NCBI GenBank assembly: GCA_023379265.1
Contig: JAMCUI010000004.1
Location: 73,273-137,272, forward strand
DNA: 64,000 nt
DNA from: Patescibacteria group bacterium
Lineage (GTDB): Bacteria; Patescibacteriota; Microgenomatia; 2-02-FULL-39-11
Direction of reading: 5' to 3'
The position numbers were made by a program, and so were the translations under genes. This document shows, one piece after another, positions 2,682-47,891 of the stretch. The notes below the pieces were generated by a model. That model was not told the origin of the DNA and made no database searches. It was given only the letters and a program-made list of their open reading frames with translations. Each line of letters starts with the position of its first letter. The stretch's first letter is position 1.

Positions 2682-2687
2682 AAAAAA

Positions 2688-28390: not shown

Positions 28391-28993
28391 TCATATCTGG
28401 CTGAGTTCCGATTCTTTTTTCTCACGCAATACTTCGATCTCCGTCATCATCTCATCCGTAAGATTCTGGATTTCTTTTTCCAGCCTTTTATTGTCATCTT
28501 CGGAAATCTCTTTGGCCTCAAACCTGCGCTTCAAATCACTCATCGCCTCATGCCTCACTTGCCGTATCATGATCCGGCCCCCCTCAAGTTTCTCATGGGC
28601 CAGCTTTATGTACTCATCCCGCCGCTCGGCAGTAAGAGCTGGAATACTTATCCTTATAATCTGGCTGTCAACTGCGGCGGTAAAACCCAAATTGGCAGCG
28701 TTAATCCCCCGCTCTATATCCTGTATGACTGAAGGGTCAAACGGTGCGATAATTATCATCCGGGGACCATCAGTGGTAATTGTCGCCATCTCTTTGAGCT
28801 TTAGATGTTGGGTGTTGTCGTAAGCGGAAATCACTACGTTTTCCACCAATGCCGGAGTTGCTCTTCCCGTCCGTATAGTCCCCAAATCTTCGGTAATGAC
28901 GTGGATAGCCTTCATCATCTGGTCTTTAACTGAACTTATCACTTGCTGGTCCATTTCAACATTACAATAACATACTTCCTTCCTTAAACTCAA
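28391..28993 (-). CDS. frr: ribosome recycling factor
   Basis: RRF pattern ...RIPALTAERRDEYIK...IRQVRHEAMSDLKR...; start may be internal (MDQQ...). Confidence 0.85.
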   Translation of the reverse strand: MSLRKEVCYCNVEMDQQVISSVKDQMMKAIHVITEDLGTIRTGRATPALVENVVISAYDNTQHLKLKEMATITTDGPRMIIIAPFDPSVIQDIERGINAANLGFTAAVDSQIIRISIPALTAERRDEYIKLAHEKLEGGRIMIRQVRHEAMSDLKRRFEAKEISEDDNKRLEKEIQNLTDEMMTEIEVLREKKESELSQI

Positions 28994-29572: not shown

Positions 29573-32056
29573 ATGGCCGAAAACAAAGTTGTCCTTGAGC
29601 TTCGCACGCCAAAAACGGCTGAGGAAACACCAGGCTCTATGGAGCAGGTCTTTGCCGCGCTTTTTTCAGGCGGTCATATCCCCCACTGGAAAAGGCTCTG
29701 GATAAAGGTGCGCACTCTTTCTTTTGAAATCGCGAGCTTTAACCAGACCATCCATTTTTACTCGGTAGTACCGGAATCTTTCAGGACGTTTATCGAAAGC
29801 CAGCTGACCAGCCAATACCCCAAAATACTTATAACAAAAGTACCCGATTATATCGGCGAAATTACCAGGTCCCCGTTTCTTGCTGTAGGCAACCTGCAGC
29901 TGGCGCATGCTTTTTACTATCCCATCAAGACTTTTTCCGAGTTCAAAGAACTGGATCCTATGTCCTCAATCATCGGTGTCTTGTCCAAACTCTCACCTTT
30001 GCAAAAAGCCCTCATCCAGATAGTGATTGAGCCTCCGCACTTTAACTGGCAGGGAATGGTGACAAGGATGATTGAGCGCGGCATTCCTGACCCCACCCCA
30101 ACCGCTCCTGATAAAACCAAATCCTTCCCGCACGCGTCAATTATCGAGACCAAACTGAAAAATACCGGATACCGCACTTATATCAGGCTACTCGTAGGAG
30201 GAGAGACTGACAAGGAGGCCAAAAGTCTCATGTTCAACCTGGCCGGTTCCTTTGGCGCCTTTGCCCTGGGAGAAGGCAACCGGATAATTCTCAGGCGCCC
30301 ACGGCTGTTCTTTAAGAAAGTCATATTTAACCGCATCATAAAGCGCGAAAAAAGCCACTTTCCCCGTCACCAAATCTTTAATACCGCAGAACTGGCTACC
30401 ATCTTCCATCCGCCCACCATGCTTTTGGCAGGCATAAAAAATATCGCCTGGGGCAGATCTCTTGTCGGTGAGCCTCCGCAAAATCTGCCCGTTGCCCTGG
30501 GTGCCACAGAGGAACAAAAAAGCCAAATCAACTTCTTTGCCAAAGCAGAGTTTAAGAACTCCCTTACTACATTTGGTGTGAAGAAAGAAGATAGACGGAA
30601 ACACGTGTATGTCATCGGGAAAACGGGTACCGGGAAATCCACCATGATTGCCAACCTGGCTATAAATGACATGAGAAACCGCGAGGGCCTGGCGGTTGTC
30701 GACCCCCACGGCGATCTGTCTGAAATACTCCTTCACTATGTTCCCTCATACAGAATAAACGATGTAGTTTATCTGGAACCGTTTAATCAAGACCGTCCCT
30801 TCTGGATAAATCCGCTGGAAGTCAAAAATCCGGTCCACCGAGAACTGGTTGCATCCGGCATCGTCTCTATTTTCTCCAAATTATACGCTTACTCATGGGG
30901 ACCGAGGCTGGAGTATATTCTGAGAAATGTCATCCTCACGCTTCTGGAATATCCAAATGCCACCCTCACTATGGCCCTGGACCTTCTGGCCGACCAGAAC
31001 TTCCGACAGGGAGTCCTACTAAAGGTCCAGGATAGAGTACTCCAAAACTTCTGGCATAACGAATTTGACAAGATGCACCCCAGGCTAAAAAGCGAAGCAA
31101 TTGCGCCTATCCAAAACAAAGTCGGCCAGTTTGTCCAGTCCCCGACTATCAGACAGATCATAGGCCATTCCTCCTCAACTATTGATCTTGAAGACATCAT
31201 GAACCAGGGAAAAATACTGATACTAAATCTCGCCCAGGGGAAACTCGGCGAGGACAATGCTGCGCTTCTGGGGGCAATGTTTATCACCAAGATGCAGCTT
31301 GCGGCCATGAACCGGGTAAACATGCCTGAAGCCGAAAGGAAGGATTTTTACCTTTACGTGGACGAGTTCCAGAATTTTGCTACTTCATCTTTTATAAAAA
31401 TACTTTCCGAAGCCAGAAAATACAGACTGGACCTTATCCTGGCCAACCAGTATATAGGCCAGCTTGAAGAGACAGTGCAAAAAGCCATTTTCGGCAATGC
31501 CGGCACACTCATTTCCTTTGTTATTGGAGCCCAGGATGCCGCGGCAATAAGTAAGGAATTCGGCCAGTGGTATAAAGAGGAAGATTTAGTTAACTTAGGT
31601 TCATACCAGATAGTCATTAAACTTGCTATCGACAACCTCACTTCACTTCCCTTCCATGCCGTCACACTCCCCTTACCCAAAAGTGTCAATCAAAATAGAG
31701 ATAAGGTAGTCAGATTGTCGCTTGAAAGATACACGAAAAACGCGGATCCAACGCTTAGCGCGCTTAGGCAAACCCCTGCTTCCGCGGTACTTCCCAAACC
31801 GCAAACAGCCAGTTTTACCCAGACTCCTTCCCAACAAGCTCCTCCTGTCAAAAATACTCCAGAGACAAGTACTTCCACTAGTCTTCCCCAAGAGACAACG
31901 AGTACTTCCGCCAAGATATCTCGTCTTCCCCATCCGCAAACCAAAAAACAGCCAAAACCGGCCAAAGATACACCAAACACTTCACAGCCTGTTAATTCCA
32001 ATCCTACTAACCAATCCAACCAAACCAGCCAGACAAACACAAACCGTTCACAATAA
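29573..32056 (+). CDS. P-loop ATPase of the FtsK/HerA/TraD-VirD4 superfamily (type IV coupling-protein-like) with ~140-aa Pro/Thr/Gln-rich C-terminal tail
   Basis: Walker A VIGKTGTGKST, VVDPHGDL (TraG/VirD4-type motif), Walker B FYLYVDEFQNF; no N-terminal TM helices; GC content visibly above host genes. Confidence 0.5.
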   Translation: MAENKVVLELRTPKTAEETPGSMEQVFAALFSGGHIPHWKRLWIKVRTLSFEIASFNQTIHFYSVVPESFRTFIESQLTSQYPKILITKVPDYIGEITRSPFLAVGNLQLAHAFYYPIKTFSEFKELDPMSSIIGVLSKLSPLQKALIQIVIEPPHFNWQGMVTRMIERGIPDPTPTAPDKTKSFPHASIIETKLKNTGYRTYIRLLVGGETDKEAKSLMFNLAGSFGAFALGEGNRIILRRPRLFFKKVIFNRIIKREKSHFPRHQIFNTAELATIFHPPTMLLAGIKNIAWGRSLVGEPPQNLPVALGATEEQKSQINFFAKAEFKNSLTTFGVKKEDRRKHVYVIGKTGTGKSTMIANLAINDMRNREGLAVVDPHGDLSEILLHYVPSYRINDVVYLEPFNQDRPFWINPLEVKNPVHRELVASGIVSIFSKLYAYSWGPRLEYILRNVILTLLEYPNATLTMALDLLADQNFRQGVLLKVQDRVLQNFWHNEFDKMHPRLKSEAIAPIQNKVGQFVQSPTIRQIIGHSSSTIDLEDIMNQGKILILNLAQGKLGEDNAALLGAMFITKMQLAAMNRVNMPEAERKDFYLYVDEFQNFATSSFIKILSEARKYRLDLILANQYIGQLEETVQKAIFGNAGTLISFVIGAQDAAAISKEFGQWYKEEDLVNLGSYQIVIKLAIDNLTSLPFHAVTLPLPKSVNQNRDKVVRLSLERYTKNADPTLSALRQTPASAVLPKPQTASFTQTPSQQAPPVKNTPETSTSTSLPQETTSTSAKISRLPHPQTKKQPKPAKDTPNTSQPVNSNPTNQSNQTSQTNTNRSQ

Positions 32057-32105
32057 ATACCCAAACAGCTTCAATTGAACAATTTATTTACTCTATGAAA
32101 AATAA

Positions 32106-32351
32106 TTATTGGATTGGAGGTAGATTAAGATGATCTTCTATTCGTTCGTCACGTTTACGAAGATCCAGATATTCGGTATCAAAAAACTCAGCAATTATAC
32201 TAACATCTTTACGTATTTTCGTATTGTCTTTTTTAATTATTTTTACCTCTGAATTCAATACTTGTAAATCCCTCTTGATGGGGTGGAGCTCTTCCTTGAT
32301 AAATTTCATTAAGGAATTTCTTAAAGACAGAATATCAATTTTTGTCAGCAT
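32106..32351 (-). CDS. small coiled-coil protein, paralog of 44546..44809
   Basis: 81 aa; shares MLTK.DL start and DFFD.EYLD.R.R.ERIE.HLNL.P.Q end with the 87-aa paralog. Confidence 0.55.
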   Translation of the reverse strand: MLTKIDILSLRNSLMKFIKEELHPIKRDLQVLNSEVKIIKKDNTKIRKDVSIIAEFFDTEYLDLRKRDERIEDHLNLPPIQ

Positions 32352-32388
32352 ATAACGACATATTAGGCTATGAAATAAATACTGTCAA
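32352..32388 (-). promoter_or_regulatory. sigma70-type promoter TTGACA-17-TAATAT, ending 8 nt before the ATG (leaderless or near-leaderless transcript)
   Basis: Reverse complement of 32360-32365 = TAATAT, of 32383-32388 = TTGACA, spacer 17. Confidence 0.55.
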
Positions 32389-32513
32389 CAACAAACACTC
32401 ATTATAACCCTATAACAAAACTATGACTTTATCATATATTCTACTATTTAATTATGGCTTTATGATATAAATATAAAAAAATCAATACTTTATTACCTCT
32501 TATTTAGTCAAGA

Positions 32514-32542
32514 TTGACAATCCTATAATTTAGTGGTATAGT
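32514..32542 (+). promoter_or_regulatory. sigma70-type promoter TTGACA-17-TATAGT reading rightward into a 640-nt non-coding leader
   Basis: Read directly. Confidence 0.4.
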
Positions 32543-32680
32543 TCGCGTCACGTTTCAGAAAAGCTTATTATTGTAGTATAAAATACAAAATATGCAGACA
32601 TCCGGAAAAATAAAATTTAACTTCCTGTTTTCCATAAAAAGAATTTTTGTCGTTCTTTTTATCTAAGTCAGGGAGTTTTT

Positions 32681-32775
32681 TGTGGCAAAACTAAACTCCC
32701 AAACTGAAGAAAAAGGGAGTTTTTTGTGGCAAAACTAAACTCCCAAACTGAAGAAAAAGGGAGTTTTTTGTGAGA
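32681..32775. repeat. Tandem repeat, ~44-bp unit x ~2.5; each unit contains a hairpin gggagtttt...aaactccc
   Basis: gggagttttttgtggcaaaactaaactcccaaactgaagaaaaa repeated without spacers. Confidence 0.85.
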
Positions 32776-33179
32776 AGTGAAACGACGAATCTGTTTGTGA
32801 AGGACTACCGGCTTTATTAAGATTTTGGTTAAAGGTAAATATTCTGCCCAAGATTTTTTGTCTTGGGTTTTTTTGCACTTTAACAAAAAGTGTCCCGTAT
32901 CTTTTTGTGACGGTTACACAATTTGCGTGTATTTATGTCTAAAAAGAGAGGAACACTTATCTTCCTGTGTTTAGAAAGTAACTTTTCCTCGCTTTGTTTC
33001 CCCGGACGTAACCGGCATTTTGGGCCTATAAATTGATGGACTCAAAATGACGGTTACGTTCATTATCTTTCATCGCAGAAACCAATTCACGCAGTAAAGG
33101 AGGAAAAGCACACAACAATCAAACAATCGTTATCCATCGAGATCGAAAAAATCGTATGTATGCCAAATGGAGGTAAACC

Positions 33180-34007
33180 ATGGCAAAGAAAGAAAAACCC
33201 ACCAACCACACGAAATGGTTCTGGTGGTTCTGGTTCCTGTTCTGCATCGTGGTCCTTGGCGGCATGGGACTCTGGGAGATCGCAAACCTCATCTTTTCGA
33301 AAAACGGCATTCAAGACATAGTGTTTGGAATGTCCGCCAACGACGACTTTGCGAATCTCCTGGGCTGGAGCGGCGCGGTCTTCTTCAGTTTCAACGAATT
33401 CCTGCCGTTCCTGGTCCTACTACTGCCCCCCGTGCGCAAGTACTTTGACAAGTGGTACAAGTGGGCGGCGATCATTGCCCTCTCCATCGTGCTCGGGTGG
33501 ATTCCCGACATCGGCAGCACGTATCTCGACATTTCGAGCCACACCGAGTACTGGAGCACGTTGGGACAGAACAAACTCATGACGACCGAGATGGTGATGG
33601 GGACCAAAATCCTCTTCAGCATCATCCTCGCCAACATGGAGCCGCTCATCGGCTTGAACATGATCCTCATCTCCGCACTATGGGAGAAGATGCATCATCT
33701 CGACGGCGATACTGTCGAGCCGCTTGAAGAACTCGAAGAGCTGATGCCCATTCTCGCAAAACTCGTCGAGGACGAGGAACTTGACGAAGAAGATGAAACA
33801 TTCATCAAGGGCGTGCTCGGCAAAGGCGAAGACGATGAACTCACAGCCAAAGATTTGAAGAAACTCCCCGGTAAGATCGAGGGCATCGCGGAAGCGGCTG
33901 AAAGCGCCAACGAGGGAGTCGAAAAACTCGTCGAACACCTCAAGGAAAAAGAGGAAGAAGAAGGCGACGAAGAGGACGACGAGGACAACGAAGACGAAGA
34001 GGATTAA
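33180..34007 (+). CDS. hypothetical multi-TM membrane protein with poly-acidic C-terminal tail
   Basis: Strong SD GGAGGT; hydrophobic segments; C-terminus EEEGDEEDDEDNEDEED; GC-rich. Confidence 0.5.
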   Translation: MAKKEKPTNHTKWFWWFWFLFCIVVLGGMGLWEIANLIFSKNGIQDIVFGMSANDDFANLLGWSGAVFFSFNEFLPFLVLLLPPVRKYFDKWYKWAAIIALSIVLGWIPDIGSTYLDISSHTEYWSTLGQNKLMTTEMVMGTKILFSIILANMEPLIGLNMILISALWEKMHHLDGDTVEPLEELEELMPILAKLVEDEELDEEDETFIKGVLGKGEDDELTAKDLKKLPGKIEGIAEAAESANEGVEKLVEHLKEKEEEEGDEEDDEDNEDEED

Positions 34008-34305
34008 CGTCTCTCTCTGCGCCTTTTGGGCGCGTCATGCCAAACACAGGAAGAGCGGGGGGCTGAAGAAAGCTTCAAAGAAGATGCACCGGCACAATAT
34101 GTGCAGGTTTGAACACCGTAACAGGTGCATCTATCTTGATTCTTTTCTCAGTCCCCCGTTTTTCCATTTCAGTATTTGTCCTGGGACAAGATGAATTTTT
34201 CGTTTTTACCGAGGACAAATATGGACAAATCTGTTCTCAATTTTTCTCTGCCAGACAGCCGGTAAAAGCTCCGGTTTTTTCTGGTGGGAAAAAGCTCTTT
34301 AACAG

Positions 34306-34425
34306 TTGAATGATAACGGATAAATGGTTATATGGAGTAGTTCGTATCCTTCAAATTCGTTTGGCGCGAGAGAAAGAGAAGCCAATTTCTGGTTGACTTT
34401 TCTTTTTCTCAAGCGTCAGATGAAA
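34306..34425 (+). promoter_or_regulatory. Repeat family A copy 1: conserved ttgaatgataacgga box, long imperfect hairpin (gcgagagaaagagaag/cttttctttttctcaagcg), conserved cgtcagatgaa, then SD
   Basis: Three copies share identical flanks; see copies at 35160 and 36958. Confidence 0.75.
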
Positions 34426-34451
34426 ATCGCAAAAAGAAAGGAAGGTCTGCC

Positions 34452-34910
34452 ATGTACATTTGCGGATGGGAAGAATTCGGTACACTTCCCTACAAGGACC
34501 AGGCAGAGATATTACGCGTGATAAATCAACAGGAAAGTATAAGTGTCTATGGCGGAATGAATGAGTTTTTCGAACTTGTTGAAAGGCTGATACCACAACA
34601 CCTGGAGTGGGTCGAGACGTATTGCAGCAACGCCCAAACTTTCAACAAAATAAAAAGAAGATACGATCTTGAGGAAATCGAGGCAATGCTGGAAGGATTG
34701 ATCCCTCCCGCAAATCCCGCACTCATGCCACCGCCAAAACCAAAACCCATGCCTGTATATACTCCTGTTGTTAAGAAGAGAGTTCACAAAACTTCCAAAC
34801 CCAGCCGTCATCGGATTCACCGATTGCGAAAGAGCAAAAATCGCAAGAAGAAATCCTGGATAGGAAGGATTGTGGGGAAAGGAAAAAAATTCCTTTCATC
34901 TTTCTTTTGA
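34452..34910 (+). CDS. hypothetical protein with Pro-rich middle and highly basic C-terminus
   Basis: SD AAGGAAGG; intact 152-aa ORF; no recognisable domain. Confidence 0.45.
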   Translation: MYICGWEEFGTLPYKDQAEILRVINQQESISVYGGMNEFFELVERLIPQHLEWVETYCSNAQTFNKIKRRYDLEEIEAMLEGLIPPANPALMPPPKPKPMPVYTPVVKKRVHKTSKPSRHRIHRLRKSKNRKKKSWIGRIVGKGKKFLSSFF

Positions 34911-35025
34911 AAACCGTTATCGTTCCCAGCTTGCATATTGGGTTTCTGCCCGAAGAGGGTGCTGGACGCCTGGTCCATCACAAAAATTCAAACCCTCTAA
35001 ATTGCACGTCTTGTCCTTAAATTTT

Positions 35026-35150
35026 TTGAGGACTGGACCTGACAGACAACATCTGTTGTCTGGAAATGATTATGGACTATATTTTTGAAATAAGTTCTTC
35101 AATATAGCCTCACAAATTGCGTGGGGTTTATTTTGATGGAATTTATCGCT
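35026..35150 (+). repeat. Repeat family B/C copy 1: gaggactggacc, hairpin cagacaacatctgttgtctg, gattatgga, then G/C hairpin + T-run
   Basis: Aligns with 36841-36957 and 39455-39590. Confidence 0.7.
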
Positions 35151-35159
35151 CTTTAACAG

Positions 35160-35263
35160 TTGAATGATAACGGAAATTATTCTCCTTCTGTTTCGTCTGG
35201 CGTGAGAGAATCAGTACCTAAACCACTCACTTGGGTTCTGTTTCTCTCAACCGCCAGATGAAG
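35160..35263 (+). promoter_or_regulatory. Repeat family A copy 2
   Basis: ttgaatgataacgga ... gcgtgagagaatcagtaccta / gggttctgtttctctcaaccgccagatgaag. Confidence 0.75.
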
Positions 35264-35394
35264 TAAATCCAAATCAGAAAGGAGATGGTAAAAGCAAAAA
35301 AAACTAATCGGCGCAAGAGAATGTACTGTAGTATCCGGAAGACAAAACCAAAAACCAACATGTTTTCCGGTATCTCTGATCGGAGGAAAAGATC

Positions 35395-36141
35395 ATGAAA
35401 GTGAAAGTATTTCTTGCAACGCAACTTGACGCCTCGCAAAGAAAAGCATTGTACGACGCGGTAGTCAAGTTCGCAAAGGACTTGGATCTCGAATCGTTCG
35501 AGGACATGTCCAAGTTCCATGAGTACATGGGCAATGCCGTTGACGACAAGATCGCAGGCGCTGTCAAAGGGACAATCACCACGGTCAAGAAATTGGAACT
35601 CTTGGTTGAAGCCGCAGAAGATAACTGGCAGCCGGAAGAGAAAACCGCGCCCGAAAAGCAGGAACCCAAATCGTCCGCGTCACCCACGCGCACAGCGGCA
35701 AAAGACCGCGCGGGGCGGCAACGGCGGATCGTGTTTCTCGTCGCAGCGGCGGCGGTCGTCCTGGTCGTCGTCTGCATCGGCATTGTCTTCTCGGGAGTTC
35801 TCGGTGGCGGAACCAGCAGCGCGACCAGCACGCTCACGCCAGCCGCACTCACGCCAATGTCAAACGCAGCGCCGAAAACTCCGGCTTCCAGCGGCTTGAA
35901 AATTCAGTCGGCACCAACCCCTCGCGGATTCTGCGAGCCGGGCACCAAAGTGCCGGCGGGACTGCCGCTCTACCGGATCACTTCGCCGGTAAACTCTGCC
36001 GTTCCCACGTGGGGCTTGACCGGCGGAAAAACCACCGACAACCAGACTTTCACAACCGGTTGGCAATCGGCTGAAAACGGCACAGTACGCATGTGCGCCG
36101 TGTCCAACAGCCCGTACGCAGTCCGTATTCCGGTGAAATAG
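35395..36141 (+). CDS. hypothetical protein with central TM helix and Ser/Thr/Pro-rich extracellular region
   Basis: SD GGAGG; TM segment IVFLVAAAAVVLVVVCIGIVF; GC-rich. Confidence 0.45.
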   Translation: MKVKVFLATQLDASQRKALYDAVVKFAKDLDLESFEDMSKFHEYMGNAVDDKIAGAVKGTITTVKKLELLVEAAEDNWQPEEKTAPEKQEPKSSASPTRTAAKDRAGRQRRIVFLVAAAAVVLVVVCIGIVFSGVLGGGTSSATSTLTPAALTPMSNAAPKTPASSGLKIQSAPTPRGFCEPGTKVPAGLPLYRITSPVNSAVPTWGLTGGKTTDNQTFTTGWQSAENGTVRMCAVSNSPYAVRIPVK

Positions 36142-36150
36142 GAGAAGAAC

Positions 36151-36588
36151 ATGACAACGCAAATCTTGCGAAAGAGAAAGACGTGGCTCGATGGGCACCC
36201 GCGCGCAAAGGCGTTCTGGCAACAAGTCCAACGCCACTGGCGGGTCGGCTCAAGCATCTTTGCTCTGGCGATCATCGCGTGGATTGGTGTCATGTACATC
36301 GCGGTTCCCATGGCTCACTTTGCGACGATCAGCGTGCCCAACCCCAACGACACCGCGTGTTCACTCGGAAACACCACGAACTCTGTGGTGTTCATGAAAT
36401 TTACTCCGAGCGGTACATTGCGTATCCACGGTAAGGTCGGCGCGAACCGTCTGGACTGGAACGAACCATTAGCACCCCTTGGCTATACTTGGACTAGCAA
36501 CAACATCCTGCCATGGGTCGGCTATTGGGAGCCGAACACCATCAAACCATGCACTGAAGCGCAAACTGCAATGACCGGCGGGCACTAG
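36151..36588 (+). CDS. hypothetical membrane-anchored protein
   Basis: SD AGGAG 10 nt after previous stop (operon with 35395 gene); TM helix SSIFALAIIAWIGVMYIAV. Confidence 0.45.
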   Translation: MTTQILRKRKTWLDGHPRAKAFWQQVQRHWRVGSSIFALAIIAWIGVMYIAVPMAHFATISVPNPNDTACSLGNTTNSVVFMKFTPSGTLRIHGKVGANRLDWNEPLAPLGYTWTSNNILPWVGYWEPNTIKPCTEAQTAMTGGH

Positions 36589-36840
36589 CCGCCAAAAGTG
36601 TATGCCGCGAGCAACTCGCCCGGGGCATACATTTGGACTCATCTTTCCGTTATTCTATCAACGATGTAGGGGTCTTGCGGATTTCCGCAGGGAAACAAAG
36701 ACAGAGAGACAAAAGAGGATATCATACTTTTTTGTTGGATCCGGTGTCTACACTGGATATCAACCACCCTCTTTACTTTTCTGTCTCCCCTAATTTCCAA
36801 GGAGATAAAAAGGTTTTGTCTTTTTGGATGTTCAGATAAT

Positions 36841-36957
36841 TGGACTTTTTCAAATTGTCTGAAAAAAAGATTATGGAATTTATGAAAGTATACTGTTCCA
36901 CGAGTTAACCCCTTTATGCGGGGTTATTTCTAGTGGGATGGATATGCACCTTAAAAA
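36841..36957 (+). repeat. Repeat family B/C copy 2 (5' part truncated)
   Basis: ttgtctgaaaaaaagattatggaatttatgaa ... aaccccttt atgcggggttatttct ... tgcaccttaaaaa. Confidence 0.7.
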
Positions 36958-37095
36958 TTGAATGATAACGGAATAATCACCTTCCCTTTCACTTTCATTT
37001 GGCGCGAGAGAACCAGCACCTAATTTCATTCGTGATACTAAATACGTAATACGTAATACAAATTTAGGTTCTGGTTTTCTCAAGCGTCAGATGAA
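36958..37095 (+). promoter_or_regulatory. Repeat family A copy 3 (17-bp stem gagagaaccagcaccta / taggttctggttttctc with 45-nt loop)
   Basis: Read directly. Confidence 0.75.
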
Positions 37096-37132
37096 AAAAC
37101 CAAAATCAAATATACGAAAGGAAGGTGCAATC

Positions 37133-39313
37133 ATGACAAAGTTAGAATTGCTAAAGTACCTCCGAAGAACAAACAGGTCACGGAAGTTTTACGAATTACT
37201 CACTAAATACCAAAACAATCTGTTTTTCAGGTTGAGAGGATTTAGTAGTGATTCGTTTCGACTCTACCTGAAGTTTGTCGGAGAGGCAAATTTAGCAAGA
37301 ACCATCGGAGACGTCAACACGACTTCACTCCGCCGCGTCTATCGCGTCCTCAAGAAAAGGTACGGGGATGAGGATGAATTGGAAGAGGATGATGGTCTAA
37401 CCATCAATATGAGTAAAGTACTTACAGTCGCGATTCTGATCGTGATTGGACTCGTAGTTCTGATGGGTCTCCCGGCGATTGGGGAAATCTCTTCCCAACT
37501 CGGGATACAGCTGGAGAAGGTGGCTGCGTCGATACCAACAACTCAACCGCAACCGCCAACCCTGGCACCAACACCCATCCCTCCCACCAAAGCTCCCCCT
37601 CTTCCCCCGCCCCCGACAGCGACACCTCAACCGCCTCCTCCGACGGTTGTAGTGGAGATGACAGCAACAGAAGCAGCTCCAGCCACTGACTGCGGCAATG
37701 AACTTTCAGCACAGGAATGTCAGAGGCTGCATGGTATGGTGGCTGCATACGGGAAGAAATGGACAGATGGGGATCCTAGTACCGGCTTGCCGCTTGGGCC
37801 GATGATGGTGGACAGGTATCTGCACGTGTGGAACCGGGATTGGACAGCTACGCAACAGGGGTTTAACGACATCCTGGGTCCACAAGGTGGGAACAGTACA
37901 CAAGCCACCAGTTCGGCAAGTTCTCCGGCGAAAAAATCGACACCGTATCCTACCATCGGCTACATTCAACCGATGACAATCACGGTGCAGGACAATAGCG
38001 GTCCGGCAGAAAATCCGACTCCCACAGCAACTCCATCTCCGCAAGCACAAGGAGGATGCAAGTCTGACGACTGGGGTTGTCAGTTCGGGAACTGGCTGCA
38101 AAGCCAATTTACGCCGATGACGTCGACACCCCAGGCACAGACGCAAACTAGCGGAAGTTGGTGCGTGAAGAAAGTGGATTGGAACGCCATGCAGGCGTGG
38201 TACTCCCACGGTACGGGAGACTTCACCGCAAATCTGCGTGACGTGAACCAGGGAGTGCTTCTGGACCGGGGTTTCAGCTGGACTGGTTTATATTGGAAAC
38301 CGGTCAATCTGTGCGGTAACGCCCAGATTATCGGCAACCCGCCGGCAAACCAATCGCAGGGGCCGCAAGCGCAAACACAACCCACACAGAGAACTCCGCT
38401 ACCCGGGTGGATGGCAAGCGCAGGAAGCTGGGGCTGTTGGGCATCTCCTTGGGGTGTAAGTCTGGATGCACAGATAGTAGATGGGTATTGGACCAATGAC
38501 GGTTACGTACTCATTTACTCACCACAGCGGGGCAAGAACGAGGTGGAAAAGGATCCCAACAAGATCCGGCAAGGAAAATGTCCGCCTACGCCAACGCCCA
38601 TGCCCACCAGTACGCCGCTTCCCCAACCGACTGCTCCACCACAGCGGATCGGGATCTACTGCATTTCAAGTGCAAGCGCCACAGGAGCAAGCGTCATGCT
38701 GACGCCAAACTCAGGCACAGGCGTAAACGTGACGCAGCAATTCCCGGTATACGAGGGATTCCGCTGGAACGGCCGATACCAGGAACCGGATGGCAGCAAA
38801 CCGATGTGCAACAGCTTGCCACAGTTTGCGCCGCCGGCACCTACCCAGATGACGGCACCGTTGCCCTCACCAACAGCATCCGTCTGCGTCCAATCAGTAT
38901 CGGACACGACATTGTATCTTCTCTGGAACAGCAGCCACGTCACTAAAAGCGTGACTGATGCTTCCGCAGGGCTGAGCCCTTACGGATTCAGCTGGACAAA
39001 CGGCAGATGGGTGACAAACACAAACGTCAAATACTGTGCCGGACCTCCCGGACCAACTACTGCTCCAACAGTCAGCGGTCCGCCCGGACCTACTGCAGTA
39101 CCAGCGCCTGTAAGGACTGCGTGTTTCCTTAAAGTTGACGGACAGAACATCTATATGCGGACTTTCGTCAACGGGATTCAATCCCCGCATGGTGATGTAT
39201 CCGTCAACCGGTACACGCAATCAGCCCAGATGGACTCGTACGGTTTTCAATGGAATGTCCCATGGTGGGGCGATCCTGCGTACGACCAGGGCACAGTACC
39301 TTCATGTAACTAA
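37133..39313 (+). CDS. large secreted/anchored hypothetical protein: N-terminal TM/signal anchor, Pro-rich linkers, Trp- and Cys-rich repeats
   Basis: SD AAGGAAGG before ATG 37133 (ORF track start 37091 lies inside the conserved leader); PQPPTLAPTPIPPTKAPPLPPPPT linker; many W/C residues. Confidence 0.5.
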   Translation: MTKLELLKYLRRTNRSRKFYELLTKYQNNLFFRLRGFSSDSFRLYLKFVGEANLARTIGDVNTTSLRRVYRVLKKRYGDEDELEEDDGLTINMSKVLTVAILIVIGLVVLMGLPAIGEISSQLGIQLEKVAASIPTTQPQPPTLAPTPIPPTKAPPLPPPPTATPQPPPPTVVVEMTATEAAPATDCGNELSAQECQRLHGMVAAYGKKWTDGDPSTGLPLGPMMVDRYLHVWNRDWTATQQGFNDILGPQGGNSTQATSSASSPAKKSTPYPTIGYIQPMTITVQDNSGPAENPTPTATPSPQAQGGCKSDDWGCQFGNWLQSQFTPMTSTPQAQTQTSGSWCVKKVDWNAMQAWYSHGTGDFTANLRDVNQGVLLDRGFSWTGLYWKPVNLCGNAQIIGNPPANQSQGPQAQTQPTQRTPLPGWMASAGSWGCWASPWGVSLDAQIVDGYWTNDGYVLIYSPQRGKNEVEKDPNKIRQGKCPPTPTPMPTSTPLPQPTAPPQRIGIYCISSASATGASVMLTPNSGTGVNVTQQFPVYEGFRWNGRYQEPDGSKPMCNSLPQFAPPAPTQMTAPLPSPTASVCVQSVSDTTLYLLWNSSHVTKSVTDASAGLSPYGFSWTNGRWVTNTNVKYCAGPPGPTTAPTVSGPPGPTAVPAPVRTACFLKVDGQNIYMRTFVNGIQSPHGDVSVNRYTQSAQMDSYGFQWNVPWWGDPAYDQGTVPSCN

Positions 39314-39454
39314 TCAGAATGATGAAGCTCTGAACTCCGTTGTCATTCCCAGCCATAGTGGGAGCAGTTTTTATACTCTCCCGACAGGGGGGCTGGATGT
39401 TCTCATCCGTCAAACCCAAAATACCCCTAAATGCTCGTTTGGTCCCCAAAAGTA

Positions 39455-39590
39455 TTTGAGGACTGGACCAGGCAGACAAAGAAATTTGTCTGCAAAAAAG
39501 ATTATGGAACTTATGAAGAAATTCTGTTTCACTATTTAGCCCCTTATTGCGGGGTTGTTTCTGGTGGAATAGAAATTGCACCTTAAAAAG
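39455..39590 (+). repeat. Repeat family B/C copy 3 (perfect hairpin cagacaaagaaatttgtctg; ccccttattgcggggttgtttct; gcaccttaaaaa)
   Basis: Read directly. Confidence 0.7.
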
Positions 39591-39799
39591 TTCATCCATT
39601 CAAGAAAAAAGGACAGGTTGATTATAAAAAGTCAGCTGCCGCATGGAGGGTATAAAGTTTTGTATCTTCCAAACGGCAGCTGAATGAACAAATCGTATCG
39701 TAAACCAACAAATTCAACTCATAAAGGAGGTAAACGCGACAAGTTCAAAATCAGGAAATCCGTAATCAACCATGTTCAATCTCAAAACTGGAGGACAGT

Positions 39800-40708
39800 A
39801 TGTCGAAACGAAACGTTCGCAAACTGACGATCGTCGACGCAATTCTCTTGCTGACGGTTGTCCTTGTTCTTGCGGCCTGTGGGTCTCCGCCGCCCCCCAC
39901 TGCCACGCCGCAAAACCCCATCCTGAAGATTGTCACTGAAGCCATCAAAATTGACAATACCTCTTCAGATGTGGTGCTGGCTGATCTGTATCAGGCGCCG
40001 CTCAAAGACGTCCTGGACCTGTCAAACGTGCTTCCGCAATACAGCACGCAGTTTGACGCGCAGGCAAAGCAAACGCCACAGTCGCAGCAACAGGACCAGG
40101 CAATCCAGGCGGCAAAAGATCAGCAAAAGCAAACGCTTGACTATCTGAACAGTTGCTACATCGGCATGGTCAAGTTTCGGCGGTATCGAGCCGATGGCAA
40201 AACGGCTTTGACCGACGGGCACAGCATCCCGGCGTCCGGAAAGTACAAGGTCTTTTGTCCGACGGAACAAGATCGGCAGGCAGGAATGGCTCCCAACCAG
40301 CTTGCGCTCATCATGAGTGTCTGGTGGAATAAGTCCATGTCGGCGTGGTACTACTCGCCGCATGGCATCAGACCTGCGTACTTCGGCGTGCAGTTGGGAA
40401 CGGTTGAAACCGACCCCACCTTCAATCCCAACCAAGCGCCTCCGGCAAACCTCGGTACCCAATGGTGGGTGGGCACCGACTGTAACTTTCTCGATCTGGG
40501 CAGCAATCAAAGGATGCCGTGCAGCACCGACTGGGTACAACAGGGGATGAGCGTGGCATACGCCGCCAATCCGACACCGGGTGTCGTGGGCGTGCAAGCC
40601 CATATCCTGGTGCTCGCAAACGGCAAGAGCGGCATCCGCTACGTCTCGGCAGCAAGCATGGGCGACAACAGCCCAATGCCGCCGATTACGGGTAACGTCG
40701 AAAAGTAG
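39800..40708 (+). CDS. hypothetical lipoprotein
   Basis: Signal peptide + lipobox LVLAAC; SD GGAGG; GC-rich. Confidence 0.55.
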   Translation: MSKRNVRKLTIVDAILLLTVVLVLAACGSPPPPTATPQNPILKIVTEAIKIDNTSSDVVLADLYQAPLKDVLDLSNVLPQYSTQFDAQAKQTPQSQQQDQAIQAAKDQQKQTLDYLNSCYIGMVKFRRYRADGKTALTDGHSIPASGKYKVFCPTEQDRQAGMAPNQLALIMSVWWNKSMSAWYYSPHGIRPAYFGVQLGTVETDPTFNPNQAPPANLGTQWWVGTDCNFLDLGSNQRMPCSTDWVQQGMSVAYAANPTPGVVGVQAHILVLANGKSGIRYVSAASMGDNSPMPPITGNVEK

Positions 40709-40737
40709 AGATTTCTGACAAACAAGGAGGAAAAACC

Positions 40738-41181
40738 ATGCCAGACAAAAACAGCAAGCGCAAAAACAAAAAGCGCTTACAACCACCGCAGGAAGTTGAT
40801 TGGACTAAGGTCGCGCTGGACGGCGTCGGCATCGTGATCATCGCGGTCTTCATGATACTAGGAATGCAGGATTTGGCTGCGATGCTCATCTGGGGATTTG
40901 CCGGATACTTGCTTGCGCGAAGCGACAGACGCAACAAACTGGTATCGGGAATCGTGGGATTTGCCGTCGCGTGTGTGATCTTTGCGATTGATCCCATCAT
41001 CCCCCTCCAGACCTGGACGGTACGATTTATAGAGTTCGCCCAGTGCGTCGCGCTACCGCTTCTGATCGCCGCCTTCATCTGGCTCACTCTGTCAGTCTGG
41101 AAAGTCGTGGCGCAAAAGGTCAAAACCCTCATCAATCAACTCAACGAAGCGACGCGAGAGAAGACACCGCCCCAGGCGTAA
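40738..41181 (+). CDS. hypothetical small membrane protein (3-4 TM)
   Basis: SD AAGGAGG 30 nt after previous stop (operon). Confidence 0.45.
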   Translation: MPDKNSKRKNKKRLQPPQEVDWTKVALDGVGIVIIAVFMILGMQDLAAMLIWGFAGYLLARSDRRNKLVSGIVGFAVACVIFAIDPIIPLQTWTVRFIEFAQCVALPLLIAAFIWLTLSVWKVVAQKVKTLINQLNEATREKTPPQA

Positions 41182-41201
41182 AATCTCGAATGGAATGAAC
41201 T

Positions 41202-41279
41202 ATCGGGGACACTGCCACGTTTGGCAGGACTGTGACGCTTCATGCGTCCTCTCTTTGCCAAACGTGTCCCCCCGATTTT
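41202..41279 (+). terminator. Long imperfect hairpin (atcggggacac...gtgtccccccgat with nested acgtttggca/tgccaaacgt) followed by TTTT
   Basis: Read directly. Confidence 0.55.
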
Positions 41280-41535
41280 CCAGCTTTGAAAGAAATTTCA
41301 GAGCTGAGAATACGGTCTTTGCACCTTAAAATATGAAAGAAATCAAAATTACGCAGCGGGAATACCCGAGGGTGCGGCGTGGAAGATTAATATTGTCGAC
41401 AAAAACAATATCCGTTTTCCGCGTCGCGCCGTCGGGGAAAATCAAAAGTATGTCATCAGGAGGTGAAACAGAAAAACGAACACTCTATCGATTCAACCAA
41501 GTACATGAGATCAATCGAAAGGAGAATCTACGAAA

Positions 41536-42435
41536 ATGAGTAGACGAAGCAGAAAAAGCGGCGGTAGCATCTTCACTATCCGCAATGCCATTGCCGTCGC
41601 AATCGTGCTGGTCGTCGTGTTCATGCTCTTTGGGGCGGGTCAAGCCTTCACGATGGCTCTCCTCCACAACGCGACGAACCAGTCAGTCGGTGCCAGCACC
41701 ACCAAGGGCGAAATTGGACCTGCTCCTACGCAGACACCACTGAATCCGGTCACGCAAGCACAAAGGTCAATCGGCGAACTGCCGGGTCAGGTGATCCAGA
41801 AGGTCACTGCCAGACCTACGGCGACACCTATGGTCAAAGCCGATCCGTACGCGTACTTCCAATCTGTCGCGGACGACGACTTTACCATTTTGACTGTGGC
41901 GGCGAAAATGGAGCCGTGCGATCCCAATCACCCTGAGAACGGTGGTTTTACAGTCATCGCCACGCGCAACCAAGGCGGTTTAGACGGTGCGTTAAACGGC
42001 AGAACCTACACGCTGAAAGTCTGGGGCGTCGTACGCGCCGGTGTGGACATGAAGGGATTTAATTTATCAAACATCGAGCTGGTTGGCGACCACCTCGTCA
42101 TTCATGTCCCCAAAGGACACTTGGAGCAGCCGACATACTATCAGGATTGCACCTACGAAAAGACGAACAACGGCGCGTTCGTCATGCTGGGAAAGATCTG
42201 GTGGAACCTCACCGACTTGCCCGACATGAACGAAGTAAGTTTGCGGCGCGAGGCAATGAAGAAAGCCGACAACGCCATCGAGAGTGCGGGCTACAACATG
42301 GGACTCGACACGCTTGCCCAGCAGAAGGTGTTTGACCGCATCGTGGACGTTGTCAAAGCAGTGGACGGGGCGGCGCATCGAGAGACCCTCCCGATCATCC
42401 CAGACTACCAGACGAACCAACCCCCGCAGTACTGA
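41536..42435 (+). CDS. hypothetical N-terminally anchored extracytoplasmic protein
   Basis: SD AAGGAG; TM helix AIAVAIVLVVVFMLFGAG after basic N-terminus. Confidence 0.45.
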   Translation: MSRRSRKSGGSIFTIRNAIAVAIVLVVVFMLFGAGQAFTMALLHNATNQSVGASTTKGEIGPAPTQTPLNPVTQAQRSIGELPGQVIQKVTARPTATPMVKADPYAYFQSVADDDFTILTVAAKMEPCDPNHPENGGFTVIATRNQGGLDGALNGRTYTLKVWGVVRAGVDMKGFNLSNIELVGDHLVIHVPKGHLEQPTYYQDCTYEKTNNGAFVMLGKIWWNLTDLPDMNEVSLRREAMKKADNAIESAGYNMGLDTLAQQKVFDRIVDVVKAVDGAAHRETLPIIPDYQTNQPPQY

Positions 42436-42480
42436 CGCGAAACGATCTATGCCAACGAGTTTGTCTCCCCCGACGGCGCG

Positions 42481-42786
42481 ATGGGCATGGAAAGGAAGGT
42501 GATCTTGAAAAAAAGTTTGACAGTGAAGGGACTGTTTGCCGCCATCATACTCCTCCTCTGCGTCGCGTACTTCTTTAGCCCGATCAATTGGGCTGATGAC
42601 GTCATCCCGGTCCTGGGATTTGCGGATGACTTCGTCGACATCGCGATCGCGGTGCTGGATGTGATGTGGTTTTTCGCGCAGGCGAGAAAACTGAGAGAAT
42701 CGGGCGCAAACCCGGTTGCTGCTCTAGAGAGTTCTGCGCGAATTCCGAAGAAAAAACGGAGAAAAAAGACAGTCCATCGCGCGTGA
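42481..42786 (+). CDS. DUF1232 (YkvA-like) small membrane protein
   Basis: ADDVIPVLGFADDFVDIAIAVLD motif characteristic of DUF1232. Confidence 0.55.
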   Translation: MGMERKVILKKSLTVKGLFAAIILLLCVAYFFSPINWADDVIPVLGFADDFVDIAIAVLDVMWFFAQARKLRESGANPVAALESSARIPKKKRRKKTVHRA

Positions 42787-42791
42787 ACGAA

Positions 42792-42820
42792 ATCTTGAAC
42801 CGAACATCTCGGTTCAAGAT
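42792..42820. other. Perfect 12-bp stem hairpin (atcttgaaccga/tcggttcaagat, loop acat) just after the DUF1232 stop
   Basis: Read directly. Confidence 0.7.
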
Positions 42821-43244
42821 GCAATGATTTCTTTCATAAAATCAATAAAACCATGAGCGGATCCTGCGTTAGACAACAGGACCATGGTCTGGGTGGAGAC
42901 GAAGAAGAGATGAAATTTGGCACGCGCGCCAACTCCGAAGCTTTACCGCTTCCTCATCTCCTTTTCCCCCTCCGTTTTACCCAGTTTCCACTCCCTTGGA
43001 TATAATAAATCTATATTACATCCAAAGGAGTGGATTTTTAGAATAGTTCCATTACCCCGGAAGTAAACAAAAATTTAACTCCGGAGGAATGGAACGGTAA
43101 GTTTTTCCATTGCACATTGAAAACTTATGGGGAAAAAATGCAGTGGGGTTATAAGGTTTTAACCAGTTTGGTTACAGCCTTTCATCCCCATTGCATTCAT
43201 CGTGAAATAAAAACCAAAATCATTCGTGTCAAAAAGGAGGAACC

Positions 43245-44252
43245 ATGAACACGAACATGAACGTAGACTGGCGGGAAATCCTGGAACAAACTCTCGAATT
43301 CCTGGATGGAATCGCCGAATGGATGGAAGAACGGTTGGGCTGGAAAGGGCTTGCAGTAAGCGCAATCGTAGCGCTCATCTGGCTGGTCCTCCTGACCCTT
43401 GTAGTCAAGATCTTCGCGCCGGGCTGGTCGGGCGCGATCATCTGGCTTACCCTGCTGGTCGGACTCCCGGCAAGCGTCTTCACCGGCATGGGCTGGAAAG
43501 CAGGCACGGTCTTGCCGGCGCTGGTGAGCATCGCGCACTTTTTGCGCACTCACTGGAAGGCGATTCTGGTCATCGGCTGGCCCGTCATCGCCTTCATCGT
43601 CTGGTGGTTTATTGCTGTGTTTATCAATGACACTGCAGATGCGCTTATTTACTGCGCGGTAGAAGGAGTGTTAATTTTCCTCCTTTGGAACCACCGACAT
43701 CCGCTGAACGTCACGAAAAAAAGTGAAAGACGCGACGTGTACAAACTGCCTGCAAGCTGGCTGCCCGGAGTGAAAGAACTGATCCTTTCGCTCATCGTCA
43801 TGTGCGTCTGGCTGGCAATCGTCATGGGTCTTGGAATCGCTCTTGGAACTAGCGTAGGATCCTGGATCCCGATTGCCATCGCGGTAGTCGCTTATCTAGT
43901 CAGCGGCTATTTCCTGCAAAAATACGTCAGGAAGGAGTTACCAGACGTCAACCTGTTCTGGACCCGGGTCATCGTGGATTTCGGTGAAAAGATGCTTATC
44001 ATCAACACAGAATTCCTTGGAATGGGTGAAAGACGGACGGTTCGTTTCAAGGACTTCAGCGAGGTGAAACATCAAGCAAAGGGCATCGGTGGCTTCTTCG
44101 TCAATAGCATCCACTTCTCACTAGAAATCATCGGTGGAGGTCCGCTCGTACTTCCCGGTCTGCGTTACAAAGGCGCAAAGTACGTGACGGCAAATGGTCA
44201 GTCGTACACAGGCGAGGATGCCTTGATTGCGTTGATGGACGAAACAAAATAA
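43245..44252 (+). CDS. hypothetical polytopic membrane protein
   Basis: SD AAGGAGG; multiple hydrophobic helices. Confidence 0.45.
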   Translation: MNTNMNVDWREILEQTLEFLDGIAEWMEERLGWKGLAVSAIVALIWLVLLTLVVKIFAPGWSGAIIWLTLLVGLPASVFTGMGWKAGTVLPALVSIAHFLRTHWKAILVIGWPVIAFIVWWFIAVFINDTADALIYCAVEGVLIFLLWNHRHPLNVTKKSERRDVYKLPASWLPGVKELILSLIVMCVWLAIVMGLGIALGTSVGSWIPIAIAVVAYLVSGYFLQKYVRKELPDVNLFWTRVIVDFGEKMLIINTEFLGMGERRTVRFKDFSEVKHQAKGIGGFFVNSIHFSLEIIGGGPLVLPGLRYKGAKYVTANGQSYTGEDALIALMDETK

Positions 44253-44409
44253 TTTCACCGCACAGGTTTTCGGGGGAGCACCCCAAGTCTCTTGAGGTGC
44301 TCCACCTCACACACTCTCCCCAAAAATCAACCTGCGTCCATCATCCTGGACAGGAATTATCCTGTCCGTGATTTGTGTACGCAGGATGATATTTAAGTTT
44401 CAAACCCGT

Positions 44410-44467
44410 TTGAGGAAATCCGGATTTTTGCATCCGGAATTTCATAGGACGGGTTTTTTAGTTGGAA
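44410..44467 (+). terminator. Stem aaacccgt/acgggttt enclosing inner hairpin tccgga-N8-tccgga, followed by T6
   Basis: Read directly. Confidence 0.5.
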
Positions 44468-44545
44468 AAAAATTTGGGGTTCCATGCTTGGAAAAGGTGA
44501 AGAAAAATGGTTAAATCCTTAGAGCGGGATGTGATTGGTATATAT

Positions 44546-44809
44546 TTACTGAAGCGGTGAGAGATTGAGATGTTTTTCGATACGCTCTACTCGTTGACGA
44601 AAATCCAAATATTCTTTATCAAAGAAATCTGTAATCGTACCTGTATCTTTTCTTATTTTGGCAATATCCAGTTTAATAGGTTTCAGATCATCTTTGGTAA
44701 CAAAACTTCTCAAATCATCCCTTCTCACAAAAGATTTCGCATCATCTTTGGTTAGAGCAACTTCCTTGATTGACTGCTTAATTTTTTGCAGATCTGTTTT
44801 TGTGAGCAT
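44546..44809 (-). CDS. small coiled-coil protein, paralog of 32106..32351
   Basis: 87 aa; conserved N- and C-terminal blocks with the 81-aa paralog. Confidence 0.55.
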   Translation of the reverse strand: MLTKTDLQKIKQSIKEVALTKDDAKSFVRRDDLRSFVTKDDLKPIKLDIAKIRKDTGTITDFFDKEYLDFRQRVERIEKHLNLSPLQ

Positions 44810-44847
44810 ATAACGACAATATTATGATAAGAAAAAATTGCTGTCAA
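44810..44847 (-). promoter_or_regulatory. sigma70-type promoter TTGACA-17-TAATAT, ending 9 nt before ATG; near-identical to the promoter at 32352-32388
   Basis: Reverse complement of 44819-44824 = TAATAT; of 44842-44847 = TTGACA. Confidence 0.55.
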
Positions 44848-44935
44848 TAACAACAGGACTATCTTAGATTTTTTGGGAGAACAAATAAAATTCTTAAATT
44901 GATAAATTATTCCAAAAGGAGCATAATAAGTCACC

Positions 44936-45361
44936 ATGAGTCCTGAGGGAAAAAGAAGATCAAGCATCCCCAGAGATCTGAGAGATGTTTACCAACAAAA
45001 AGAACCTCCGCTTGTTGAAATCCAGCCCGAAACTCCTTTGGAAAAAGAATTTGAACAACCGCCTGACATACCTTTTCAACACGTAGTAAAAGCTTTTGAA
45101 AAAGTCGTTTTCCAGGTAGGCCACAGGAAAGTAAAAAGGAGAGATGACTTGCGGCTTCCCAGACGAAATGTTGTTGTCGCACTGAGACAACCCAATGATC
45201 CCGATCAAACCATCTTTGCAAGAATCACTTCGGGAGCTGCCGACTGGATAGGAAGTATACCCACAGTTGGGATACATGGAGTAAGGCGCGTAGGACACGA
45301 AAAACTTCCCAAAAAGGCCAGGCAGGCAGCAAGACAGAAAAGAAAAATAGGTTTAAGGTAG
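44936..45361 (+). CDS. hypothetical basic protein
   Basis: Intact 141-aa ORF, no domain recognised. Confidence 0.3.
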   Translation: MSPEGKRRSSIPRDLRDVYQQKEPPLVEIQPETPLEKEFEQPPDIPFQHVVKAFEKVVFQVGHRKVKRRDDLRLPRRNVVVALRQPNDPDQTIFARITSGAADWIGSIPTVGIHGVRRVGHEKLPKKARQAARQKRKIGLR

Positions 45362-45381
45362 TCAAATATTTCGAAGAATGA

Positions 45382-45651
45382 TTAAATCCATCCCTTTTCC
45401 TTAGGCAGCTTCGACAACCATGTATGCGTACCTTTCAGTTCCGGAGGAGATTCAATTTCTACATAATAAAATAGTAGTCCTTCTGATTTTCTTGGGGAAC
45501 CGATAAGCCAAACCTTCGTTCCGGGAGGCGCTTTCCCGTCTTCATGCCTACCACTTGAATATCCGGTCCAAAAAGGTGTCCCTGCTCTCACTCCATACGG
45601 ATGAGGCATCGCTTCACTTTCCCTATTTTGTGTTTCTAATTCTCTAACCAC
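45382..45651 (-). CDS. hypothetical protein
   Basis: 89-aa ORF, no domain recognised. Confidence 0.3.
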   Translation of the reverse strand: MVRELETQNRESEAMPHPYGVRAGTPFWTGYSSGRHEDGKAPPGTKVWLIGSPRKSEGLLFYYVEIESPPELKGTHTWLSKLPKEKGWI

Positions 45652-45896
45652 AATAGTTTCTGGTTATAGAAAAATTTTGAATTAAAATTATATTCGTTCG
45701 TATAAAACATCGCACTCACTTATATCAGTTGTGTATTGTACATCTTGCTAACAGGAATTTTCAATAACTATCCACTCTCTTTGATATTTTTAATTCTTTG
45801 GACTATTGTTATTATGAGGACACTCATCTTCTGAAAGAATGAGAAAGTCTGAAAATGGTATTAGAAACACCATACAATTTATAAAAAAATAATTAT

Positions 45897-47804: not shown

Positions 47805-47891
47805 TCAAGTTTGCCATCAGTAGTTACGCACTCTGTATCTTATATCCTGTTTCACGTAACTCAGGTTTGCAACTGAGTTACTCAGTATATA

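Follow-up and report, generated by a model that had tools for sequence, protein, structure and literature searches.

Leaderless genes have been described in Actinobacteria, Deinococcus-Thermus and archaea, and efficient RecA-dependent recombination in Escherichia coli requires roughly 23–27 nucleotides (nt) or more of exact identity. Both matters bear on a locus found in a Patescibacteria group bacterium, in a 64-kb stretch of contig JAMCUI010000004.1 (assembly GCA_023379265.1, positions 73,273 to 137,272), which is referred to here as the window. In it, two related genes for small coiled-coil proteins, each directly preceded by a consensus-like promoter, lie on either side of a block of DNA that differs between strains. 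The original prediction, made from the letters of the window, was that the two directly repeated genes could serve as recombination substrates for deletion or exchange of the intervening block, or else that the small gene marks an integration site or mobile unit, or is a dedicated regulator of the genes in the block. The explanation that we prefer, and hold to be reasonably probable, is that the two genes are resident, co-regulated, leaderless paralogs belonging to an unannotated Microgenomates family of coiled-coil housekeeping proteins, and that they happen to lie either side of a strain-variable hotspot.

The two small genes and their promoters

The two genes and the promoters assigned to them are located as follows.

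32106..32351, minus strand: paralog 1, encoding a predicted single-helix coiled-coil protein of 81 amino acids (aa), the 81-aa type
44546..44809, minus strand: paralog 2, encoding a protein of 87 aa, the 87-aa type
32360..32388, minus strand: sigma-70-type promoter of paralog 1, TTGACA-17-TAATAT, with 8 nt from the end of the -10 box to the ATG
44819..44847, minus strand: sigma-70-type promoter of paralog 2, TTGACA-17-TAATAT, with 9 nt from the end of the -10 box to the ATG

The positions, strand and lengths first given for the two open reading frames (ORFs) were all correct, and their direct orientation was borne out, both being on the minus strand. Aligned end to end, the proteins share 46% identity (tblastn E 7e-16), in keeping with the proposed paralogy. 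The genes are separated by 12,194 bases (32352 to 44545), and no third copy was detected within the window using tblastn. Conserved ends had also been described. The N-terminal MLTK.D and the C-terminal FFD.EYLD.R.R.ERIE.HLNL.P.Q are indeed common to both proteins, but the residue preceding FFD, which had been included in the motif, differs (E versus D). The ratio of nonsynonymous to synonymous substitution rates (dN/dS) was approximately 0.1 for the 87-aa gene relative to two orthologues, and for the 81-aa gene relative to its orthologue dN was 0.18 with dS saturated; both ORFs are genuine protein-coding genes under purifying selection. In paralog 1, an Asp replaces the near-constant Val/hydrophobic residue of the family (RKRVERIE to RKRDERIE, in the region of residues 68 and 72), and in the near-identical strains represented by contigs L004–L006 the 81-aa protein additionally has Gly at the invariant Glu72. 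These Asp and Gly changes may reflect relaxed constraint on paralog 1.

The promoter configuration was confirmed for both paralogs, with TTGACA-17-TAATAT ending 8–9 nt before the ATG and leaving no room for a leader or a Shine–Dalgarno (SD) sequence. GGAG, GAGG and AGGA are absent ahead of the start in both, and the upstream DNA of the two genes is 84% identical across approximately 55–57 nt. When candidate promoters were scored, out of 12, for their match to TTGACA-(16–18)-TATAAT, a start-proximal promoter with a score of at least 10 was found for 0.35% of all ATGs in the window and one with a score of at least 9 for 1.5%. As so few ATGs reach 10, it is not by chance that both paralogs have a promoter of this kind. 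Among 47 distinct upstream regions from the family, 26 scored at least 9, with the -10 box ending 6–9 nt before the ATG (most commonly 6), and a further seven scored 8 to 8.5. Set against the 1.5% of window ATGs, this indicates that the leaderless-type arrangement is an old and conserved trait of the small-protein family. The promoter is not special to the pair, because the same architecture is common among the window genes that lie outside the block, with nine of these 42 genes having a consensus-like promoter that ends 5–12 nt before the ATG and only four of the 42 an SD-like motif. This suggests that SD-free genes with start-proximal promoters are common in this Microgenomates genome. For the small genes, the spacing points to transcripts that begin on the AUG or no more than a few bases from it, and to SD-free initiation. 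A literature search returned nothing directly relevant on leaderless usage in Patescibacteria or Microgenomates, or on how bacteria of the candidate phyla radiation use SD motifs.

History of the two copies

Orthologues of the 81-aa type (P0006, 73–75% identity; P0007; and P0002, 99%) and of the 87-aa type (P0003, P0004 and P0005, 68–75% identity, found directly after tsf in other species) sit in the same rpsB-tsf...frr interval of Gottesmanbacteria-like organisms. The two types are old lineages that arose by an ancient duplication or, less likely, with one of them an allele from a relative. The promoters have a different distribution. In the 48 nt ahead of the genes, identity is 78% between the two window copies (32360–32400 and 44819–44860) and 72% between the 81-aa-type copy of L001 (6453–6500) and the 87-aa-type copy of L026 (1810–1857), while for pairs of the same type drawn from different genomes it is 56–58%, which is the level seen with shuffled sequences. 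The organisms represented by the window, L001 and L026 are equidistant as judged by EF-Ts (80–83% identity), and the promoters therefore group by lineage and not by paralog type. The comparison, which involves five sequences, suggests that the 5' ends have been homogenised within a genome or have evolved together with a regulator common to both copies.

The protein family

An exhaustive profile search detected 589 cluster representatives (50% identity) at E<=1e-10 and 1566 at E<=1e-3. The 38 close homologues are all small, and those carrying source names are from Patescibacteria or Gottesmanbacteria. When species-representative genomes were scanned using a 12-sequence family alignment, relatives were found in records named Roizman-, Gottesman-, Collier-, Woese-, Blackburn- or Daviesbacteria or 'Microgenomates'. 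Six records that include a family member (L009, L010, L011, L013, L015 and L017) are titled Gammaproteobacteria or Pseudomonadales. These titles look like mislabels, because the gene order in L013, rpsB-tsf-frr-small-rseP-proS, is the same as that in the Woesebacteria loci L018 and L020.

Family members are stand-alone proteins of about 60–130 aa, with a conserved N-terminus (MLTKxDL), a middle section that is variable in length and often repetitive, and a conserved C-terminal motif, KIRKDxxxIxxFFDxEYLxLRKRVERIExHLNLPP. Entries of 131–246 aa that had the appearance of domain fusions were rejected, being spurious upstream extensions of ORFs with the same MLTK start. The coiled-coil label attached to the proteins at the outset agrees with the AlphaFold2 model, a monomer prediction consisting of one helix spanning residues 4–74 (predicted local distance difference test score, pLDDT, 93), and with a profile search of the PDB, in which only coiled-coil proteins were matched (best 7o97, E 8e-5, positions 17–76). 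By inspection, hydrophobic residues recur at a spacing of 3–4 in the conserved C-terminal half. In Pfam, NCBIfam and PHROG, nothing above the curated threshold was matched by either protein or by any of 35 family members, and in the same set there was no Pfam or NCBIfam match to a DNA-binding domain (helix-turn-helix, ribbon-helix-helix or similar). Many family members gave weak, sub-threshold matches to generic coiled-coil Pfam families (best E 0.002–0.007). A resemblance to the N-terminus of DivIVA/GpsB, suggested by MLTKxDL and DFFDxEY, was dropped, as the 35 members included none with a DivIVA match at E<=1. The small protein would most likely be an abundant oligomeric coiled-coil protein with a housekeeping, adaptor or structural role, and the family is probably strongly expressed.

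Location of family members in other genomes

The context of the small gene was surveyed in 83 loci from genomes and metagenomes, with up to 10 kb visible on either side and many of the contigs short. A single copy was present in 81 of the 83 loci, with two copies seen only in the window and in L078. The small gene directly follows tsf in L025–L029, and in L026–L029 the gene, which is of the 87-aa type, is 60 nt after tsf. It lies between frr and rseP in the cluster rpsB-tsf-frr-small-rseP-proS (L013, L018, L020 and L056), after an M23-peptidase gene and obg in about 12 loci, between secF and yqeY in L023 and L084, and beside a gene for a VirD4-like coupling protein in the case of window copy 1, L001, L004–L006 and L065, being convergent with it in window copy 1, L004–L006 and L065. 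In the remaining loci it is next to assorted metabolic, envelope or other housekeeping genes. The solitary position of the small gene among housekeeping genes in 81 of 83 loci does not support reading it as the marker of a mobile unit or integration site, and the association of paralogs with variable regions that the original prediction anticipated was not seen across the 83 loci. The recurrent neighbours tsf, frr, obg and yqeY raise the possibility of a link between the small protein and translation, which is a weak guess and an unlikely one.

L078, a 3-kb metagenome contig, includes family members at 505–738 and 2644–2949, in direct orientation and 1.9 kb apart. The pair flanks a gene for an APH-family kinase and an uncharacterised gene, both on the opposite strand, and there is no anomaly in GC content. 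The second L078 copy belongs to a longer 'NKIQKD' subtype, as does P0030.

The strain-variable block

The block lies between the paralogs.

32826..44545, plus strand: strain-variable block of about ten genes and about 11.7 kb, with the left end defined by strain comparison and the right end assumed to coincide with the 3' end of paralog 2

Contig L004, which is from a different sample, is 99.25% identical to the window across 10.7 kb, and this shared span includes homologues of proB, proA and proC (identified using Pfam), rseP, frr, the coupling-protein gene and copy 1 of the small gene. The identity continues up to 32825/32826, where the two sequences diverge abruptly; the 81-aa gene itself is not touched, as this point is 474 nt upstream of it. 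An independent contig, L030, is a 100% match to 32796–36677 of the window and starts 30 nt before this breakpoint, as would be expected where strains part in an assembly graph. Contig L024, which is identical to the window, reproduces the right-hand portion of the block and paralog 2. The block is real and strain-variable, and its left junction is outside the small gene. No strain variants were found for the right side, where the neighbour encoding 141 aa is not on record and the contig with the neighbour encoding 635 aa is too short.

The proposal that the DNA between the paralogs is distinct in composition as well as strain-variable was upheld. The GC content of the block is 50–57% (33–44 kb), compared with about 42% in the flanks. 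A strong GGAGG-type SD motif is present in seven or eight of its ten genes, behind intergenic regions of 350–500 nt, and none of the ten has a start-proximal promoter, so that the block genes (33180–44252) are set apart from the other genes in the window by SD use as well as by GC content. By sequence inspection, the products are membrane proteins, lipoproteins or secreted proteins with Pro/Thr-rich linkers, and only two of the ten have weak Pfam matches, to DUF4230 and DUF1232. The DUF4230 protein (41536–42435), the sole block product used to search 5.8 billion proteins, matched only itself and so gave no pointer to a donor lineage. In L004, bases 1–3478 are occupied by an alternative GC-rich (50–54%) gene set comprising an SPFH/Band-7 gene and genes for membrane proteins without a known family. 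These genes point away from the small gene, as is the case in the window, and have no detectable sequence similarity to the window block.

The block and the small genes are part of an expanded interval with the following flanking features.

28391..28993, minus strand: frr, the left anchor of the expanded tsf...frr interval
29080–29451: gene for a 23S-rRNA-intervening-sequence protein
29573..32056, plus strand: gene for a VirD4/TrwB-like type IV coupling-protein homologue, convergent with paralog 1
44936–51499, plus strand: four genes without a family match, several with host-type start-proximal promoters
51745–52209 and 52245–53084, minus strand: tsf and rpsB, respectively, the right anchor

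The distance between tsf and frr is about 23 kb in the window, whereas these genes are adjacent in Woesebacteria-like genomes. Elsewhere the interval holds toxin–antitoxin genes (PIN, MazE/Fic and HicB), and it appears to be a hypervariable spot in Gottesmanbacteria. The VirD4-like gene is conserved beside frr in L001 too and looks to be a resident. Searches of the flanking proteins and most of the block proteins using Pfam, NCBIfam and PHROG revealed no integrase, recombinase, transposase or relaxase, and there are no tRNA genes in the window. A repeat search covering 31900–45100 found no terminal repeats at 32826 or about 44545; between the two small genes it recovered only a 27-nt, 89% identical match in the start region.

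Intergenic elements

The region between paralog 1 and the first gene of the block includes several further features.

32352..32825: AT-rich intergenic region, about 31% GC, common to the window and L004
32514–32542, plus strand: promoter TTGACA-17-TATAGT (11 of 12), preceded by TG
32670–32757, plus a partial third unit: 44-nt tandem repeat with a hairpin in each unit
32846–32868: intrinsic terminator

Downstream of the promoter there is a possible 24-codon ORF that begins at 32593 (MQTSGKIKFNFLFSIKRIFVVLFI). The copy number of the 44-nt repeat varies between strains, with fewer copies in L004 and L006. The stretch from 32514 to 32875 could be a small RNA or small-peptide unit. An Rfam search of 31900–45100 at E<=0.1 returned only a chance match to a microRNA.

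Within the block, the intergenic regions at 34275–34440, 35129–35225, 36852–37027 and 39449–39576 (and also 41320–41349) share repeated modules, made up of a terminator-like hairpin (e.g. CCCCTTTATGCGGGG followed by a run of T), then TTGAATGATAACGGA and then TTTGGCGCGAGAGAA. There are three exact copies of TTGAATGATAACGGA, compared with about 0.3 expected, and three copies of TTTGGCGCGAGAGAA. The modules precede successive genes and in this resemble a promoter/5' untranslated region cassette that has been reused. The motif is absent from the L004 cassette, and in the other loci only matches with two mismatches, at the level expected by chance, were found.

Origin of the arrangement

Under the explanation that we prefer, each gene of the family would be transcribed from its own housekeeping-sigma promoter and translated in leaderless, SD-free fashion. 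The conserved rpsB-tsf...frr interval would have grown to about 23 kb in a Gottesmanbacteria-like genome and would hold two old lineages of the family, and an 11.7-kb block of GC-richer, SD-using genes for envelope proteins would lie in the space between them. The paralogs would then flank the block as residents of a hypervariable spot, with no apparent role in mobilising, delimiting or regulating it. The likeness of their promoters would reflect common descent together with concerted change within the lineage, either by gene conversion at the 5' end or through shared regulation. Several points weigh against this account. The independent contig that supports the left junction extends just 30 nt into the shared flank, and the right boundary of the block is assumed and does not come from strain comparison. 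The labels 'leaderless' and 'abundant' are predictions from the sequence. The linkage to translation genes is seen in approximately a third to half of the loci, and phylogenetically these loci do not count as independent cases. In L078, too, direct copies flank genes on the opposite strand, which gives some room for a recurrent arrangement. The DNA that can be seen is about 64 kb of the source genome and up to 10 kb either side of every other locus, and the copy counts apply to these stretches.

If one of the copies were instead a xenologue, a segment from a Gottesmanbacteria-like donor, consisting of a small gene together with the block, would have integrated at a resident copy, and the second copy would be a trace of how the block came in. 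In sister species, the 81-aa type (L001) and the 87-aa type (L025–L029) are found in the same interval with one visible copy per locus, a pattern that would fit diverged alleles of one locus, and the block is foreign in composition. However, the contigs L025–L029 are 4.8 kb or less, and a second copy further along could escape view. Both window copies also share a lineage-specific promoter variant unlike those of L001 and L026, when a foreign promoter would be expected from a distant donor, and the small genes are of the host type, leaderless and SD-free, unlike the genes of the block. We regard a xenologous origin as unlikely. We give still less credence to the proposal put forward originally, that the paralogs provide the homology by which RecA-dependent events delete or exchange the block. 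In its favour, the paralogs point the same way at a distance of 12.2 kb, a near-identical strain has a different block at this place, and the 5' ends and promoters of the pair look homogenised, making past gene conversion possible. Nevertheless, the longest exact run common to the two gene regions is 14 nt (TGTCGTTATATGCT, across the start codon), which falls short of the 23–27 nt needed for efficient recombination and makes the paralogs poor substrates. Their DNA is alike in two short patches (84% over 57 nt and 72% over 116 nt), with the middles of the genes unalignable. In addition, the place where the strains diverge (32825/32826) is separated from the 81-aa gene by 474 nt, and no hybrid of the 81-aa and 87-aa genes was found among the 38 close homologues.

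A role for the small protein in dedicated regulation of the divergent genes beside it, with each copy facing a set of genes on the plus strand, is also very improbable. Both copies, and the copy in L004, are indeed divergent from plus-strand genes, and the intergenic modules of the block could be operator-like. The protein, however, lacks a DNA-binding domain, its predicted fold being one uninterrupted helix, and the modules are absent from other loci, including the L004 cassette. At most loci the small gene is co-directional with or among housekeeping genes (tsf, obg), and the family is thus present where such cassettes are absent. Finally, the window is derived from a metagenome contig, and a chimera joined at the shared promoter or repeat sequences might be suspected, given that the strains part ways at 32826 and that independent Logan contigs begin at 32796–32799. 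An artefact of this kind is highly improbable. The 14 identical bases that are shared are well below typical assembly k-mers, and independent contigs at 99–100% identity cover the side with the coupling-protein gene and paralog 1 (L004–L006), the left part of the block with 30 nt of the shared flank (L030) and the right part with paralog 2 (L024).

Significance

In the form first proposed, the arrangement would have represented a new way to delimit or exchange islands in bacteria of the candidate phyla radiation, and the evidence does not support this. The finding is real but mostly ordinary and would not surprise a specialist. What it does bring to light is a large conserved family that is so far seen only in records named Patescibacteria or Microgenomates and is missing from Pfam, NCBIfam and PHROGs. 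The contrast between an SD-led block and SD-free genes with start-proximal promoters also provides a simple handle for spotting DNA that has been acquired or is differently regulated. A more ambitious and rather doubtful possibility is that the family is a housekeeping factor confined to Microgenomates, strongly expressed, leaderless and associated with the translation machinery, that the Gottesmanbacteria interval is a dedicated hotspot at which strains swap sets of envelope genes lacking known relatives, and that the copies are co-regulated through concerted promoter evolution. The role in translation is put forward because tsf, frr, rpsB, obg and yqeY recur as neighbours in bacteria with reduced ribosomes.

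Comparison with known systems

The locus resembles att-bounded genomic islands and integrative elements in having a deviant composition, variability between strains and similar flanks in direct orientation. It differs from them in that there is no integrase, relaxase, transposase or tRNA gene here, the 'repeats' are whole diverged genes with no more than 14 identical bases, and the boundary that could be mapped is not at the repeat.

Among coiled-coil proteins, DUF1664, YgaB, FlaC_arch, KxDL and LPP in Pfam gave weak matches only, none at the gathering score, and the matches are scattered across unrelated families, consistent with a likeness in composition only. The best match in the PDB, 7o97 (hypothetical protein UY81_C0065G0003 from Candidatus Giovannonibacteria), is similar in size (approximately 80–90 aa) and is also from the candidate phyla radiation. 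The likeness is again at the level of coiled-coil composition, as the family motifs MLTKxDL and KIRKDxxxIxxFFDxEYLxLRKRVERIExHLNLPP are not shared, and a literature search on this protein returned nothing directly relevant.

A further parallel is with the leaderless genes of other groups. As in those genes, the -10 box is 6–9 nt from the start codon and the start is SD-free, and this is predicted from the sequence for both paralogs, for most of the family and for at least a fifth of the other genes in the window that lie outside the block.

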